IMG/VR virus record: IMGVR_UViG_2698536428_000008
Direction: 5' to 3' (one strand)
DNA: 12,745 nt
Source of the DNA: a virus
Lineage: Duplodnaviria > Heunggongvirae > Uroviricota > Caudoviricetes
Position 1 is the first letter of the stretch, and each line of letters begins with the position of its first letter. Positions 1 through 7,421 of the stretch are shown piece after piece. Below the pieces are notes generated by a model. The model searched no databases. It was given only the letters and a program-made list of their open reading frames with translations, and was not told the origin of the DNA. Both the position numbers and the translations under genes were made by a program.

Positions 1-180
1 GGTTTCCCCCTGGCGAATACGGGCGGCGAATACCGCAATACAACCGGACGGGCAACGGCTACGCGCTTCGCGTTCCGTCCAGGCGGTTACGTGGATGATT
101 TGAGATTCTGACGCGCCAAAGATGATAAAGCGCCAGATAAATGCGGTTTGAGAATGTACAAGGGTAGGGATAGTAGCCAT
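1..180 (-). CDS. Hypothetical protein, N-terminal 60 codons only; the gene runs off the left edge of the window
   Basis: ATG at 180-178 preceded by a strong Shine-Dalgarno GAGGAGG (complement of 189-195) with 8-nt spacer; the frame stays open to position 1. Translation begins MATIPTLVHSQTAFIWRFIIFGASESQIIHV. The same frame is also stop-free upstream to ~1071, so the true start is uncertain. Family not recognised. Confidence 0.45.
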   Translation of the reverse strand, partial: MATIPTLVHSQTAFIWRFIIFGASESQIIHVTAWTEREARSRCPSGCIAVFAARIRQGET

Positions 181-625
181 GTTGGCAGCCTCCTCAGTGT
201 GGTTAAGATAACCGCCACGCAAAAGGCTAATTTCGCTGGTGGCGGACTGTACAGGGTTAGCCTTACCGGACACTGAAGAAACCGGCGCGGATTGCTCCGC
301 CCCCGTACAGCCCACCATTGATAAGGTGTGACTATGCGGCACAAAAAAACACGCGGGGCGCGTGCTGTGCGCTTCAGTTGTTTTCAGGAGGCTAATCCCG
401 ACACCCGTTTTATGAGGTGCGCGGGAATCATAGCCATTTTTGCTGGTGGCGATCAACTGGTTTTTTACACCCGCTTTATTCAGGTTGTGTGAGTCCCGCC
501 CTTGCGGGTGTGTGGTATGATTTCTCATAGCTACCTCGATACTTTCGCTATCGTTGGTGGTTAGAAGCCCTGCGAGTGGTAACGACACTTGCGGGGCTTT
601 GCATTTATGCACCTTGATAACCTCA

Positions 626-661
626 AGGTGTGGCCCACTATATTCTTTAGGTGTGGCCCAC
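626..661. promoter_or_regulatory. Two copies of AGGTGTGGCCCAC (each containing the palindrome GTGG-c-CCAC), 23 bp apart, upstream of the small RHH gene; candidate operator
   Basis: Exact 13-bp direct repeat at 626-638 and 649-661, read from the sequence; each has an internal inverted repeat. They sit just upstream of a -10-like TATACT at 692-697. Operator function is inferred, not shown. Confidence 0.3.
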
Positions 662-727
662 GTCAAGAGTTTTATTTGTGCTTTTTCTGTGTATACTGTC
701 CCCCACCAATCCAACAGAGGAATAGAA

Positions 728-907
728 ATGGCAACGGGTACAACAAACGCAAAATCACAAGCTCTAAAGGCTCGTGTACCACACGAAATAGTAAACGACA
801 TGGAATTAGTGAAAGAATCAGGCGAAAGCACATCACAATTCATCATTGCGTCAATGCAAGGCGAGATCAAACGCCGCCAGCGCCGCAAGGCCAAAGAGCA
901 GGAATAG
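728..907 (+). CDS. Small ribbon-helix-helix (Arc/CopG-like) DNA-binding protein, 59 aa
   Basis: ATG at 728 with GAGG about 8 nt upstream; it is the in-frame internal start of track ORF 554..907. The sequence KARVPHEIVNDMELVKESGESTSQFIIASMQGEI fits a beta-strand/helix/helix RHH pattern, and the tail is basic (KRRQRRKAKEQE). The fold call is from pattern recognition only. Confidence 0.55.
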   Translation: MATGTTNAKSQALKARVPHEIVNDMELVKESGESTSQFIIASMQGEIKRRQRRKAKEQE

Positions 908-1024
908 CCCACCAGCAAGCCAGCACACTGAGCACATTGCCCACCAGACAGCAAATCGCTATGATGTTCTGGCTTATGTTTAGTGTTTTCCCACTGGCGG
1001 CCCTCTGTGGTCGCCTTTGTTTTG

Positions 1025-1606
1025 TCACTGAATGCGGTTGCCAAAGTAAAACTCAGGCTGATATTCACGTATCAGCCTTTTTTCTTCTTCCTCCAGCTCA
1101 CGCTTTTTGCGCTTACATGCCTGTAGCTCCCTCCCCTTCTGACTGGCACTTATCTGATATTGCTCTTTACGGCGAGAAAAGTCCTGTAATGCGCCCCACG
1201 GGATACCATAAGCCCCCGTTTTTCTGATTCCTGGTATCACATTCCTGAATACCCAGTTACTGAAACGATGGGCGAACGTGCCAGGAGTAACAGCTTTCCG
1301 ACTTCTGGCGATCAGCTTGTAAAAACCGGATTCAGAAATGAGGCTATGATTTGGGTTTCCTCGAATACCGTAGCTTAAAGCGACGGTTTTCTTTTCATCC
1401 GCATCTAGTGCTTTTATAGCATCGCGTGAGTTACTTATTTCCAGAGCAACACAAACATCTTTTGCAACAAACCACGGATCGCCGTTCAGATACACCACAC
1501 GAACGTTCACACTATCAAAGCGCAGAACGACGAGATCACGAATATCGCAGAATTTTTTCACTGGACGAGCGTACCCCTTGCCCGTCACGGCAATATTTTT
1601 ATTCAT
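1025..1606 (-). CDS. Bro-N domain protein (phage antirepressor-like), 193 aa, with a basic, Glu/Lys-rich C-terminal tail
   Basis: Track ORF; ATG at 1606 with AAGG upstream. N-terminal region FCDIRDLVVLRFDSVNVRVVYLNGDPWFVAKDVCVALEISNSRDAIKALDADEKK matches the Bro-N signature (G-PWF-A-DV, DEK). C-terminus KRKKRELEEEEKRLIRE is charged and helix-prone. Confidence 0.8.
   Translation of the reverse strand: MNKNIAVTGKGYARPVKKFCDIRDLVVLRFDSVNVRVVYLNGDPWFVAKDVCVALEISNSRDAIKALDADEKKTVALSYGIRGNPNHSLISESGFYKLIARSRKAVTPGTFAHRFSNWVFRNVIPGIRKTGAYGIPWGALQDFSRRKEQYQISASQKGRELQACKRKKRELEEEEKRLIREYQPEFYFGNRIQ
1055..1091 (+). terminator. Candidate intrinsic terminator for plus-strand transcripts from the RHH gene, embedded in the 3' end of the convergent Bro-N gene
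   Basis: 9-bp stem AGGCTGATA / TATCAGCCT (1055-1063 / 1070-1078) with a 6-nt loop, followed by TTTTTCTTCTTCC. The minus-strand reading also has a U-rich tail, so it may work in both directions. Confidence 0.4.
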
Positions 1607-1623
1607 CGCGTTTTTACCTTATA

Positions 1624-1650
1624 GACAAAAAACCCCTCGTGATGAGGGGC
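1624..1650 (-). terminator. Candidate rho-independent terminator between the alpA-like gene and the Bro-N gene
   Basis: Stem CCCCTC / GAGGGG (1633-1638 / 1644-1649) with a 5-nt loop; on the minus strand the hairpin is followed by TTTTTTGTC. It lies 13 bp after the alpA-like stop and about 26 bp before the Bro-N start. Confidence 0.5.
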
Positions 1651-1662
1651 ATTATTTACTGG

Positions 1663-1920
1663 TTATTGCTGTTTTGTTTTTCCAGGTTTCCATCCAGGAT
1701 GCCACTCACCACGGATCCATGCCTGAACCTCTGAAAGTCGATACCCTGCAGCACGTTCACCGATCTTGATACGTCGCGGGAATTTACCTGCCTGCTCCAT
1801 TTTCCAGCGTGTTGAGTTTGCCAGCGTGGTAAGTGCTATGCACTCTTTTTCACGAATGAACCGATCAATGTCCTTCATTGTGCGCAAATCGTTTTCATCA
1901 ACAAGAGAATAAATTGTCAT
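1663..1920 (-). CDS. alpA: AlpA/Vis-family phage regulatory protein (excisionase-like, helix-turn-helix), 85 aa
   Basis: Track ORF; ATG at 1920 lies 1 nt after the integrase stop, with GAGGTGG upstream (translational coupling). Motif LTTLANSTRWKMEQAGKFPRRIKIGERAAGYRLSEVQAWI matches the AlpA family pattern. Confidence 0.8.
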   Translation of the reverse strand: MTIYSLVDENDLRTMKDIDRFIREKECIALTTLANSTRWKMEQAGKFPRRIKIGERAAGYRLSEVQAWIRGEWHPGWKPGKTKQQ

Positions 1921-1921
1921 A

Positions 1922-3163
1922 TCACACCACCTCTTTATTAAGCTCGATAACGTTGTTGTTAAATCCTGCTATCGTATTAAGGTAATTAACCCACATATTA
2001 AGCACCTCAAGTTTTTTCTTTATATGCCTGCTTTTATTGTAAACACCAGCAACCCCTTTCACTTTATGACCTAAAAGAAGTTCGACAATATAAGGATCCG
2101 CCCCCATATCATTAAGCGCAGTGGAAAATGTGCGCCTGAAATCATGTATGCACCACAAGCCATTAGTATCATGACCAAGACGCCTGCATATTCTGTTTGC
2201 AGCCCCTGTTATTGTCGCCCTTTGCAAAGCACAACCGACAACATAACCGCGATTTTTTGTTTCTGCGTAAAGATTAACGATCCATTGTTTTATACCGTCA
2301 GGAACAGGCCTTACTATGGCCTCCTTGTTTTTGCTGTGCTCTTTTGGGACTGTCCATACCCAGTTTTTTAAATCCCATTCGTCCCAGGTGGATAGCCTCG
2401 CCTCCTGCTGTCGGCAACCAAATACCAGGCAGATAACCATTATTCTTCGGTTATATATTGATGACAGAGTTAGCAAATTATTACCGTAAGCATAAGACCA
2501 TACATCAGCGGTTTCATTGATATTAAGAACGCGCTCCCTTATACCGGATGAGCGCCCGACATAACTTACGTTAATATCTTCAAAGGGATCGCACGCGATG
2601 TATTGCCTGACGCGACAAAAACGCAACGCCTGTTTGATATCAAGAAAAATTGCACCAGACATAACAGGCGCATTTTTTTTGATCCTGTCAAAGACGGTAA
2701 GCCATGTGTGTAATTTGCACTGTTCTATAGCCATATCACCGATATAGGGGAAGATATGCTTTTCAAATCGTTTTATTAAATATTCATGCTCTTTTCTGGC
2801 TGTTGTGGCGTGATTGTCGTACCAGTAAAACAGCGCATCCCTTACGGTCACTGGTTGCATAGTTTTTTCGGCAGCAAGTTTTATTTGCCTGCGGGGGTCC
2901 AGATTTTCAGCCAGCCATTCACGGCACTGATCACGCATGCGCCTGGCCGTTGCAAGAGACATGTCAGGATAGCGACCAAGTGTAAGCCATACCGGAGGGG
3001 ATTCCCTGCCACCAAGACGATAGTAAAAAACAAAGCTGATCCCCCCAACCATGCTTACACGCACAGACAACCCGCGCCCATCCGCTATTGTTTTTTGTTT
3101 GTCCTGCCGTTTTCCGACAAGACTCTTTAACAGTTTGTCACTGAGTTTGTTTTCAATAGCCAT
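1922..3163 (-). CDS. int: Tyrosine-type site-specific recombinase, P4-like integrase (413 aa)
   Basis: Track ORF; ATG at 3163 with GAGGG upstream. N-terminal arm-binding pattern (LSDKLL...DGRGLSVRVS...GGISFVFYYRLGG...LGRYPDMSLATAR...DP) is typical of P4-family integrases; the C-terminal domain has HDFRRT, LLGH and a late Tyr. Confidence 0.93.
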   Translation of the reverse strand: MAIENKLSDKLLKSLVGKRQDKQKTIADGRGLSVRVSMVGGISFVFYYRLGGRESPPVWLTLGRYPDMSLATARRMRDQCREWLAENLDPRRQIKLAAEKTMQPVTVRDALFYWYDNHATTARKEHEYLIKRFEKHIFPYIGDMAIEQCKLHTWLTVFDRIKKNAPVMSGAIFLDIKQALRFCRVRQYIACDPFEDINVSYVGRSSGIRERVLNINETADVWSYAYGNNLLTLSSIYNRRIMVICLVFGCRQQEARLSTWDEWDLKNWVWTVPKEHSKNKEAIVRPVPDGIKQWIVNLYAETKNRGYVVGCALQRATITGAANRICRRLGHDTNGLWCIHDFRRTFSTALNDMGADPYIVELLLGHKVKGVAGVYNKSRHIKKKLEVLNMWVNYLNTIAGFNNNVIELNKEVV

Positions 3164-3181
3164 TAAAAGCCCTCAAGAGAT

Positions 3182-3235
3182 TTGCAATACACACCCATCC
3201 CGATCGCCAATTTGCAATACACATTGCAATACACA
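3182..3235. repeat. Three direct copies of TTGCAATACACA 20-70 bp upstream of the integrase start; candidate integrase arm-type or regulatory sites
   Basis: Exact 12-mer at 3182-3193, 3212-3223 and 3224-3235 (the last two in tandem), read directly. Function is inferred from position next to int and the element junction. Confidence 0.5.
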
Positions 3236-3311: not shown

Positions 3312-6292
<2,981 letters not shown>

Positions 6293-6318
<26 letters not shown>

Positions 6319-6838
6319 TCAGCAACCCCGGTATCAGTTCATCCAGCGCGGCTGCTTTGTTCATGGCTTTGATGATATCCCGTTTCAGGAAATCAACATG
6401 TCGGTTTTCCAGTTCCGGAAAACGCCGCTGCACCGACAGGGGGATCCCGTCGAGAATACTGGCAATTTCACCTGCGATCCGCGACAGCACGAAAGTACAG
6501 AATGCGGTTTCCACCACTTCAGCGGAGTCTCTGGCATTTTTCAGCTCCTGTGCGTCGGCCTGCGCACGCGTAAGTCGATGGCGTTCGTACTCAATAGTCC
6601 CTAGCTGGAGATCTGTCTCGCTGGCCTGCCGCAGTTCTTCAACTTCCCGGCGCAGCTTTTCGTTCTCAATTTCAGCATCCCTTTCGGCATACCATTTTAT
6701 GACGGCGGCAGAGTCATAAAGCACCTCATTACCCTTGCCACCGCCTCGCAGAACGGGCATTCCCTGTTCCTGCCAGTTCTGAATGGTACGGATACTCGCA
6801 CCGAAAATGTCAGCCAGCTGCTTTTTGTTGACTTCCAT
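6293..6838 (-). CDS. nu1: Terminase small subunit gpNu1 (181 aa)
   Basis: Track ORF; MEVNKKQLADIFGASIRTIQNWQEQGMPVLRGGGKGNEVLYDSAAVIKWYAERDAEIENEKLRREVEELRQ matches lambda Nu1 (N-terminal wHTH, ATP-reactive C-terminus). Lies immediately downstream of cos on the minus strand. Confidence 0.95.
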
Positions 6839-7226: not shown

Positions 7227-7421
7227 ATGTCAACGAAGAACAGAACCCGCAGAACAACAACCCGCAACATCCGCTTTCCTAACCAAATGATTGAACAAAT
7301 TAACATCGCTCTTGAGCAAAAAGGGTCTGGGAATTTCTCAGCCTGGGTCATTGAAGCCTGCCGTCGGAGACTAACGTCAGAAAAGAGAGCATATACATCA
7401 ATCCAAAGTGATGATGGATGA
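7227..7421 (+). CDS. ylcI: Small prophage protein (64 aa), probably YlcI/DUF3950-like
   Basis: Track ORF MSTKNRTRRTTTRNIRFPNQMIEQINIALEQKGSGNFSAWVIEACRRRLTSEKRAYTSIQSDDG. Size and position (between cos/Nu1 and bor) fit the ylcI slot of DLP12-like prophages; the family assignment is from memory. Weak RBS. Confidence 0.55.
   Translation: MSTKNRTRRTTTRNIRFPNQMIEQINIALEQKGSGNFSAWVIEACRRRLTSEKRAYTSIQSDDG

Follow-up and report, generated by a model that had tools for sequence, protein, structure and literature searches.

A probable three-box operator of a YlcI/YnfO-family ribbon-helix-helix protein in the control region of a helper-embedded phage satellite

The locus described here raises the question of what two exact tandem 13-mers are doing in front of a small ribbon-helix-helix (RHH) gene. 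They are found near the left end of a 12,745-nt stretch of tailed-phage DNA (IMG/VR record IMGVR_UViG_2698536428_000008; "the window" below means this whole stretch), which is a helper-embedded phage-inducible chromosomal island (HE-PICI, where PICI stands for phage-inducible chromosomal island) situated in a lambda-like portal gene, itself within a prophage. A sequence-only reading of the window took the 13-mers for an autoregulatory operator of the RHH protein. Judging from homologous loci, we think it likely that they are two out of three boxes, O1, O2 and O3, which form a tripartite operator of this protein, a member of the YlcI/YnfO family, in a 200-bp HE-PICI control region. As far as sequences can tell, the feature appears to be real, functional and larger than first described, i.e. 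an uncharacterised example of a well-known kind of switch.

Boxes and promoters in the control region

The 13-mer AGGTGTGGCCCAC is matched exactly at 626-638 and 649-661 on the plus strand, with starts 23 bp apart, just as the sequence-only reading had it, and no further copies with up to two mismatches were found in the 12.7-kb window. The distances it gave also hold, as the end of the second copy is followed after 30 nt by a TATACT hexamer (692-697) and after 66 nt by the ATG at 728. Its opinion that such a duplication is unlikely by chance is supported by simulation: an exact direct repeat of at least 13 nt, at an offset of 8-60 nt, appeared in only two out of 300 first-order Markov simulations of the whole 12,745-nt window, and must consequently be far rarer still within 128 nt. 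The repeat can be extended imperfectly to 22 nt (617-638 and 640-661, 82%). The palindrome GTGG-c-CCAC that had been pointed out is present in the window allele but is specific to it, the unit that is kept in relatives being GTG-N5-CAC. Across relatives, the box is an 11-mer, (G/C)TG-N5-CA(C/G/T), with the form of a 5-1-5 pseudo-palindrome that is perfect in some alleles, e.g. GTGGACTCCAC, CTGGATTCCAG and GTGTCGGACAC.

The boxes, the predicted promoters and the RHH gene are arranged as follows.

628-638, box O1 (GTGTGGCCCAC): core of copy 1; takes in the final 2 nt of the leftward -10 as well as the start predicted for leftward transcription, at about 630
651-661, box O2 (GTGTGGCCCAC): core of copy 2; in the leftward promoter spacer, abutting the -35
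696-706, box O3 (CTGTCCCCCAC): extends over the final 2 nt of the TATACT -10 and over the predicted RHH transcript start
637-666, minus strand, P_L, predicted strong sigma-70 promoter: -35 TTGACG (666-661), 18-nt spacer, -10 TATAGT (642-637)
669-697, plus strand, P_R, candidate promoter of the RHH gene: -10 TATACT (692-697), weak T-rich -35 GTTTTA (669-674)
728-907, plus strand, RHH gene of the YlcI/YnfO family, 59 aa: Shine-Dalgarno (SD) sequence GAGG at 717-720
565-599, conserved G+C-rich hairpin: inverted repeat adjoining O1 on the left

O3, which was absent from the sequence-only reading, is a degenerate third copy with 8/11 matches to O1 and O2. The same degenerate form, CTGTCCCCCAC, is found in the Escherichia coli relatives L001 and L002 (L numbers are our locus labels), while other relatives have CTGTGGCCCAC.

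P_L has 10/12 consensus matches in a consensus scan, and 33 out of 34 examined loci have its hexamers, as TTGAnn at -35 and TAnnnT at -10, in the same place. O2 fills its spacer and touches the -35, while O1 starts within the -10 and spans the predicted start. Downstream follow the hairpin (599-565) and the start of a leftward open reading frame (ORF; SD 537-534, ATG 528-526). In relatives, P_L likewise faces small genes, a DUF4222 gene, a DUF927 or D5-type primase and a single-stranded DNA-binding protein (SSB). Between the boxes and the first leftward start codon, no other promoter is obvious. In most loci, the -10 of P_R occupies -36 to -31 relative to the RHH start codon, its columns carrying 1.5-1.8 bits each; an extended -10 is absent on inspection by eye. 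Another plus-strand promoter noted by eye, TTGATA (614-619) and TATATT (639-644), was dropped, having a 19-nt spacer and an unconserved -35.

Repeated sites are thus found on core promoter elements of both predicted promoters, O1 and O2 at P_L and O3 at P_R. The earlier assignment is partly right. An operator of the RHH protein is supported, as the boxes covary with its beta-strand (see below), but the tandem copies do not lie on the RHH promoter; both overlap the core of the divergent P_L. With O1 and O2 in this position, their first job is probably repression of the opposite operon, and the autoregulatory site is likely to be O3 (696-706).

Hairpin 565-599 would form a 5' stem-loop of the leftward transcript; on the plus strand it is terminator-like and followed by TTTGCATTT. 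Its structure is retained despite sequence change in L053 and L045, and the fold z-score of 527-610 is -6.1. An alignment of 31 control regions gave the conserved order hairpin, AAG-GTG-N5-CAC-TATA, AAG-TG-N5-CAC-GTCAA, T-rich tract, GTATA-CTG-N5-CAC-CA, SD and ATG. In the same region, a candidate SymR-like cis-antisense small RNA was noted at 527-605 on the plus strand, with two hairpins, the second being the 565-599 stem followed by TTTGCATTT. It has a minimum free energy of -40.1 kcal/mol (z -6.1), and the first leftward ORF has its SD and ATG exactly antisense to it. Homologous stretches in L014 (2800-2873), L008 (2779-2853) and L012 (2802-2873) score 36-39 bits against Rfam SymR (RF01809), short of the gathering threshold of 61 (E 2e-4 to 1e-3). 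Nearby, at 513-521, TGGTATGAT may be an extended -10.

Conservation among homologous loci

Homologous loci were collected from species-representative genomes (40), metagenomes (80) and IMG/VR (80), with another nine found by exact-protein look-up or BLAST match. The survey counts 203 gene occurrences with at least 125 nt upstream, corresponding to 131 unique sequences. The sequence-only reading had suggested checking whether the repeat is conserved in homologous elements, and boxes of the form nTG-N5-CAn do occupy fixed positions there: in 193 of the 203 loci they begin at -77 and -32, counted from the RHH start codon. Counted over unique sequences, a box starts at the O2 position (-77) in 119 out of 131 and at the O3 position (-32) in 128. 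Box 1 is present in 129 of them, either direct or inverted, and lies 22-25 or 35 bp to the left of box 2. These two spacing options are about one helical turn apart, so that the boxes remain on one face of the DNA. Information content is concentrated in the GTG/CAC edges, GTCAA (the P_L -35) and GTATACTG, with 1.3-1.9 bits per column, while the N5 core has 0.1-0.7.

Concerted variation of the boxes and the RHH beta-strand

The N5 core exists in 27 types across the loci, and the boxes of one locus change together. Boxes 2 and 3 agree at 4.2 out of 5 core bases within a locus, compared to 1.8 out of 5 between loci, and in a permutation test on a 24-locus set none of 100,000 permutations reached the observed within-locus match. 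Such concerted variation goes beyond independent drift and implies a common, element-encoded reader of the boxes. When each locus was scanned for extra copies of its own core, none was found beyond the three boxes, except for a possible fourth site in TCAGC-type loci. This box-like sequence (ATGTCAGCCAT or one mismatch off) occurs at about -203 from the RHH start in L016, -205 in L014 and -198 in L024, where it overlaps the codon at which the first leftward ORF would start; this could be chance, passed down among related loci.

The 28 classes of RHH strand (residues 11-15) map almost one-to-one to the core types. ALKA and SLKS go with TGGCC, KLEA with TCAGC, K(L/V/I)QA with GA(N)TC, KMSA with GCACC, RFDV and RIDA with T(C/G)GGA, SVTA and SLTA with TCTTA, MTTV with AAATA, and QLNA with AATCG. 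Residue 14 shares the most mutual information with the core, equal to the column entropy (z 21), followed by residue 12 (z 16.5), while the equally variable residues 27 and 31 reach only z 6 and z 3, respectively. Residues 12 and 14, together with the invariant R16, form one face of the RHH strand, an alternating pattern that gives indirect support to an RHH homodimer whose two-stranded antiparallel sheet would enter the major groove. Furthermore, when the strand class was used to predict core types in advance, five predictions held in loci of other genera that were fetched later, namely L045 (TCAGC), L046/L047 (TCGGA), L050 (ACTCC), L052 (TGGCC) and the O157:H7 element L053 (GATTC). The sites are accordingly both conserved and covarying with the residues that would read the DNA.

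An exchangeable cassette in mosaic elements

Comparison of closely related elements separates the boxes from most other genes. The window, L001 and L002 have identical boxes and RHH proteins that are 95-97% identical, whereas their AlpA proteins reach only 31-45% identity, and they differ in integrase, integration site and the cargo on the left. A divergent AlpA beside identical boxes is evidence against AlpA or another neighbor as the partner of the boxes, and AlpA was rejected in this role. More generally, the boxes occur with or without BRO-N, and AlpA, integrase and cargo genes vary independently of them. Relatives with the same RHH module are integrated in terminase genes (L001 and L053) or beside tRNA-Pro (L002).

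Four E. coli elements are approximately 95-97% identical in their flanks (470-570 and about 865-950), while the cassette between them, from the hairpin through the N-terminal two-thirds of the RHH gene, comes in three types. A chimera was found at L045 3001-3180 (E. coli CP028739). The 5' half of its RHH gene is of the TCAGC/KLEARVP type and 62% identical to the window, the 3' half is 96.7% identical to the window, and the recombination breakpoint lies near codon 30; the boxes follow the foreign N-terminal half. Operator and N-terminal two-thirds of the RHH gene thus resemble, in sequence, an exchangeable specificity ("immunity") cassette.

The GCCCACCAG repeats 3' of the RHH stop (904-952) were considered as extra boxes and ruled out, as they are unchanged in elements of all three box types. 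In full, this is a direct repeat, ATAGCCCACCAGCAAGC and ATTGCCCACCAGACAGC, at 904-920 and 936-952 on the plus strand, directly 3' of the RHH stop and 5' of a terminator-like hairpin (996-1015); constant in all three E. coli box types, it is no allele-specific operator box.

The RHH protein

The RHH gene is the only satellite gene on the plus strand. Its product belongs to the YlcI/YnfO family (NCBIfam NF041551, DUF3950), with 63.7 bits against a cutoff of 30, and to PHROG 949 (E 3e-22), which is categorized as "unknown function". The label "RHH" in the sequence-only reading holds at the level of the fold, as a single-chain AlphaFold2 model, built with 31 homologues (predicted local distance difference test score 88), has an extended N-terminus followed by two helices, consistent with the N-terminal beta-strand and two helices of the RHH (MetJ/Arc) fold. 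The window protein has no match in Pfam. Among the 31 homologues, eight have weak matches to PF18064 (RHH ParB C-terminal domain; best E 0.0045) and two to PF07704. No Arc or Mnt match was found in Pfam at E up to 10, leaving the likeness to that family a structural one only, and a PDB profile search with the protein gave nothing meaningful. In the literature searched, there was no paper assigning a function to YlcI, YnfO or DUF3950, and none connecting PICIs with an RHH regulator.

About 167 out of 5,426 complete E. coli genomes carry the window allele at an identity of at least 90%, and other RHH/box alleles are spread across Enterobacterales. One strain with the element, E. coli 2011C-4251, matches the window at 99.7% identity over 600-910. 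By contrast, tblastn of the satellite RHH protein against 50,697 phage genomes gave no match, and a megablast search of deposited phages with 1-3200 gave a single partial match, a weak one, so that at this sensitivity the module is no feature of sequenced phages.

Weighing the alternatives

Several points count against a three-box operator of the RHH protein. About 5% of the loci retain the gene with one or no boxes (L017, L022, L027, L029, L034 and L122). Most loci with fewer boxes look like deletions between direct repeats, or rearrangements: the upstream region is replaced in L022 and L122, and O3 is missing in L027 and L123. In the Xenorhabdus loci L017 and L029, apparent precise deletions were noted that fuse box 1 to box 2 or to box 3, with the loss of one or both promoters. 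The boxes also adjoin the 5' half of the RHH gene, whereby linkage and shared descent confound the covariation, the chimera and the ranking by mutual information alike. The protein is placed just weakly in Pfam RHH families by sequence profiles, Foldseek found no match to the model, and binding, footprint, transcription-start or reporter data for the YlcI/YnfO family were absent from the literature searched. An 11-bp box is small for a classical RHH dimer of dimers, which leaves any stoichiometry a guess. Lastly, the -35 of P_R is poor, and the consensus promoter scan did not call this promoter; it may need activation, or O1 and O2 may act on it positively.

The last point leads to the alternative that the RHH protein is mainly an activator, with O1 and O2 as upstream activating sites for a weak P_R and the leftward promoter fortuitous. 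The poor -35 agrees with this, as do the centers of O2 and O1, at about -48 and -71 from the predicted P_R start. On the other hand, the TTGAC and TAnnnT of P_L are conserved at fixed positions even though they lie outside the boxes, the leftward operon would be left with no other obvious promoter between the boxes and the first start codon, and O3, on the -10/+1, has a repressor-type position. We therefore give a mainly activating protein very little probability, although activation and repression could be combined, as with lambda CI. Autoregulation alone, i.e. the two 13-mers as a purely autoregulatory operator of the RHH promoter that is bound by a dimer of dimers and has no role at the divergent promoter, we regard as unlikely. 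The repeats are upstream of the RHH gene and covary with it, and RHH autoregulation is common in general (Arc, CopG, antitoxins). Nevertheless, the copies end 30 nt 5' of the -10, at about -43 to -78 from the predicted start, which is no blocking position, and coincide instead with the -35/spacer and -10/+1 of the conserved leftward promoter. Moreover, there is a third box on the RHH -10 itself, and box 1 can be inverted or shifted by one helical turn.

Some other factor might bind the boxes, such as AlpA, BRO-N, a helper protein (e.g. the YlcI paralogue at 7227-7421) or a host protein. AlpA is a known activator of Gram-negative PICIs (PMC6092414), Pseudomonas AlpA binds an element within a promoter (PMC9371919), and the helper encodes a YlcI/YnfO paralogue in the same window. 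Against this stand the identical boxes that are found with divergent AlpA proteins, different integrases and with or without BRO-N, the 27 element-specific core types, which go beyond what a host factor could explain, and the fact that only the adjacent RHH gene, through its beta-strand, always changes together with the boxes. Another reader than the RHH protein is consequently very unlikely. Finally, it is most improbable that the RHH protein is a type II antitoxin with the repeats as toxin-antitoxin operator, or that the boxes are origin iterons or recombination sites. The next gene (BRO-N) is convergent and separated by terminators, and no toxin partner was found; the ORFs downstream are absent from most loci, and none is conserved. 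As for iterons or recombination sites, the boxes are in exact register with the promoter hexamers and the start codon and number only two to three copies, and mapped satellite origins lie in the replication zone with primase and SSB genes (PMC10111431).

The satellite and its helper

The remaining features of the window, all on the minus strand apart from the terminator-like hairpins, are the following.

1-528, minus strand, first leftward ORF, ash/eta-like: ATG 528-526, SD 537-534; open at the left end of the window
344-420, minus strand, isrK-like RNA: Rfam RF01394, 61.8 bits (gathering score 50)
235-322, minus strand, C4-type antisense (immunity) RNA, a relative of P4 CI: Rfam RF01695, 75.4 bits (gathering score 45)
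996-1015 (plus strand) and 1055-1078 (bidirectional), terminator-like hairpins: between the convergent RHH and BRO-N genes
1025-1606, minus strand, BRO-N antirepressor-like gene (Pfam, PHROGs)
1663-1920, minus strand, AlpA (Pfam, PHROGs)
1922-3163, minus strand, integrase (Pfam, PHROGs)
3312-4193, minus strand, truncated lambda-type portal gene: abuts the right arm of the satellite
4393-6318, minus strand, lambda-type terminase A
6293-6838, minus strand, lambda-type Nu1

The assignment to HE-PICIs is based on the integrase, AlpA, BRO-N, the C4 and isrK RNAs and the truncated portal gene of the helper, which covers Phage_portal_2 profile positions 2-242. Tommasini, Mageeney and Williams described an HE-PICI organization that the window matches, with a replication zone after the Bro zone (PMC10111431), and the truncation at Pfam profile position 242 fits their site group B:Phage_portal_2:241 (PMC10111431). 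In relatives with the same module, the replication zone to the left contains the DUF4222 gene, a DUF927 or D5-type primase and SSB.

The first leftward ORF matches PHROG 29966 (E 2e-107), plus transcriptional regulator/repressor PHROGs. An Icd-like reading frame begins at 180-178 on the minus strand, and the window ends within this icd-like gene; in the annotation of relatives, the leftward ORFs are labeled "ash family" and "Icd-like". Both the isrK-like and the C4 RNA lie within the ash-like ORF, like P4 CI inside eta, and the isrK-like element is a relative of P4 seqA (PMC10111431). An internal promoter is predicted on the minus strand, with TTGATC (456-451), an 18-nt spacer and TATGAT (432-427), whose start at about 420 coincides with the isrK model's first base; its counterpart in P4 is an internal constitutive promoter (PMC10111431). 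The two RNAs are, however, no constant companions of the RHH/box module. In 20 other module loci, C4 and isrK gave no match at the gathering threshold, and at E up to 0.1 there were only sub-threshold SymR-like matches. As they are missing at Rfam thresholds in most other module loci, the RNA immunity is a separable layer.

Two further observations concern the flanks of the satellite. The sequence TTGCAATACACA is found three times between the integrase start and the truncated portal gene (3182-3193, 3212-3223 and 3224-3235), the segment 3211-3237 being 96% conserved beside the L001 integrase; these copies are probably integrase arm-type or att sites. The helper prophage carries its own YlcI/YnfO paralogue at 7227-7421 on the plus strand (64 aa, PHROG 949), divergent from nu1 across the cos region, which is the same layout as in ylcI/nohD and ynfO/nohA of E. 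coli K-12. The region upstream of this paralogue is without the GTG-N5-CAC three-box architecture.

Proposed mechanism

From the sequences, the geometry of the boxes relative to consensus promoter elements, their conservation, concerted variation and covariation with the strand, together with the RHH fold, we infer that the protein physically binds the boxes, with a stoichiometry suggested below, that both promoters fire and that the sign of the regulation is repression. The 59-aa protein would bind each box as a dimer. Box gaps of 22-25 or 35 bp, and the possible inversion of O1, appear to fit one dimer per box better than a dimer of dimers. Residues 12 and 14 of the beta-ribbon, with the invariant R16, would read the variable central 5 bp, while contacts to the invariant GTG/CAC edges would be made by those parts of the protein that do not vary. 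Occupation of O1 and O2 would block RNA polymerase at P_L and thereby keep the early operon silent, i.e. the ash/icd-like genes, joined in relatives by primase, SSB and the DUF4222 gene. O3, which is a poorer match in the window allele and in several others and is placed over the RHH promoter's -10 and start, would provide negative autoregulation at a higher level of repressor.

Going one step further, we tentatively suggest that the RHH protein and its three-box operator may be the missing master repressor or immunity determinant of a large clade of Gram-negative satellites, existing in dozens of exchangeable types and bypassed in cis, although the odds are somewhat against so broad a role. 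The clade meant consists of HE-PICIs, capsid-forming PICI (cf-PICI)-like and related elements. The bypass would need neither cleavage nor an anti-repressor. Terminator-resistant helper late transcription, or AlpA-dependent transcription, would enter via int-alpA-BRO-N and, speculatively, run antisense over the RHH gene into the early operon. Satellite genes point the same way as helper late genes (PMC10111431), and as this applies to all satellite genes here but the RHH gene, antisense read-through is a plausible bypass.

Relation to known systems

In the immI region of phage P22, the RHH repressors Arc and Mnt act at the overlapping promoters Pant and Pmnt. The regulatory logic is similar, but Arc and Mnt each have one operator of about 17-21 bp that is bound by a tetramer, as opposed to three 11-bp boxes with flexible orientation, 2-4 helical turns apart; they target ant rather than an early/replication operon, and there is no shared sequence family. 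Phage lambda offers another parallel, with OR1-OR2-OR3 as a tripartite operator between the back-to-back promoters PR and PRM, two good sites on the "lytic" promoter, a weaker third on the repressor's own promoter, and an immunity region that is swapped as a cassette between otherwise similar elements. Lambda CI is, however, a helix-turn-helix protein with 17-bp sites, compared to the RHH protein and its 11-bp boxes. Closer in protein type are omega and CopG, whose short RHH-dimer units, direct or inverted, also overlap promoter elements, and CopG keeps RNA polymerase off the promoter (PMC2724298). Omega has contiguous heptads and CopG a single 13-bp site, whereas the satellite units of 11 bp have 11-24 bp of promoter DNA between them.

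Among satellites, Stl of the Staphylococcus aureus pathogenicity islands (SaPIs) and Rpr of the Gram-positive PICIs (PMC6092414) resemble the RHH gene in being situated beside int, divergent from the replication/early operon, and in having many specificity types. No sequence relationship to the satellite RHH protein was detected, and Stl and Rpr are inactivated by helper proteins (PMC6092414). For Gram-negative PICIs, AlpA activates, while whether they possess a global repressor like SaPI Stl has been called "unclear" (PMC6092414). P4-type RNA immunity (CI/C4 with seqA/isrK, in the Bro zone; PMC10111431) belongs to the same operon in the window and also limits expression of the early operon, but it is RNA-based and works downstream, on elongation and translation, whereas the layer described here would be a protein.

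Significance

The RHH switch would thus add a protein layer to the C4/isrK RNA immunity of these elements. As a widespread and concrete candidate for the repressor of Gram-negative PICIs in this clade, the RHH/box module makes the repressor question for Gram-negative satellites directly testable. Furthermore, the residue-to-base table, i.e. strand residues 12 and 14 against the 5-bp core, could be used for typing the "immunity" groups of satellites.

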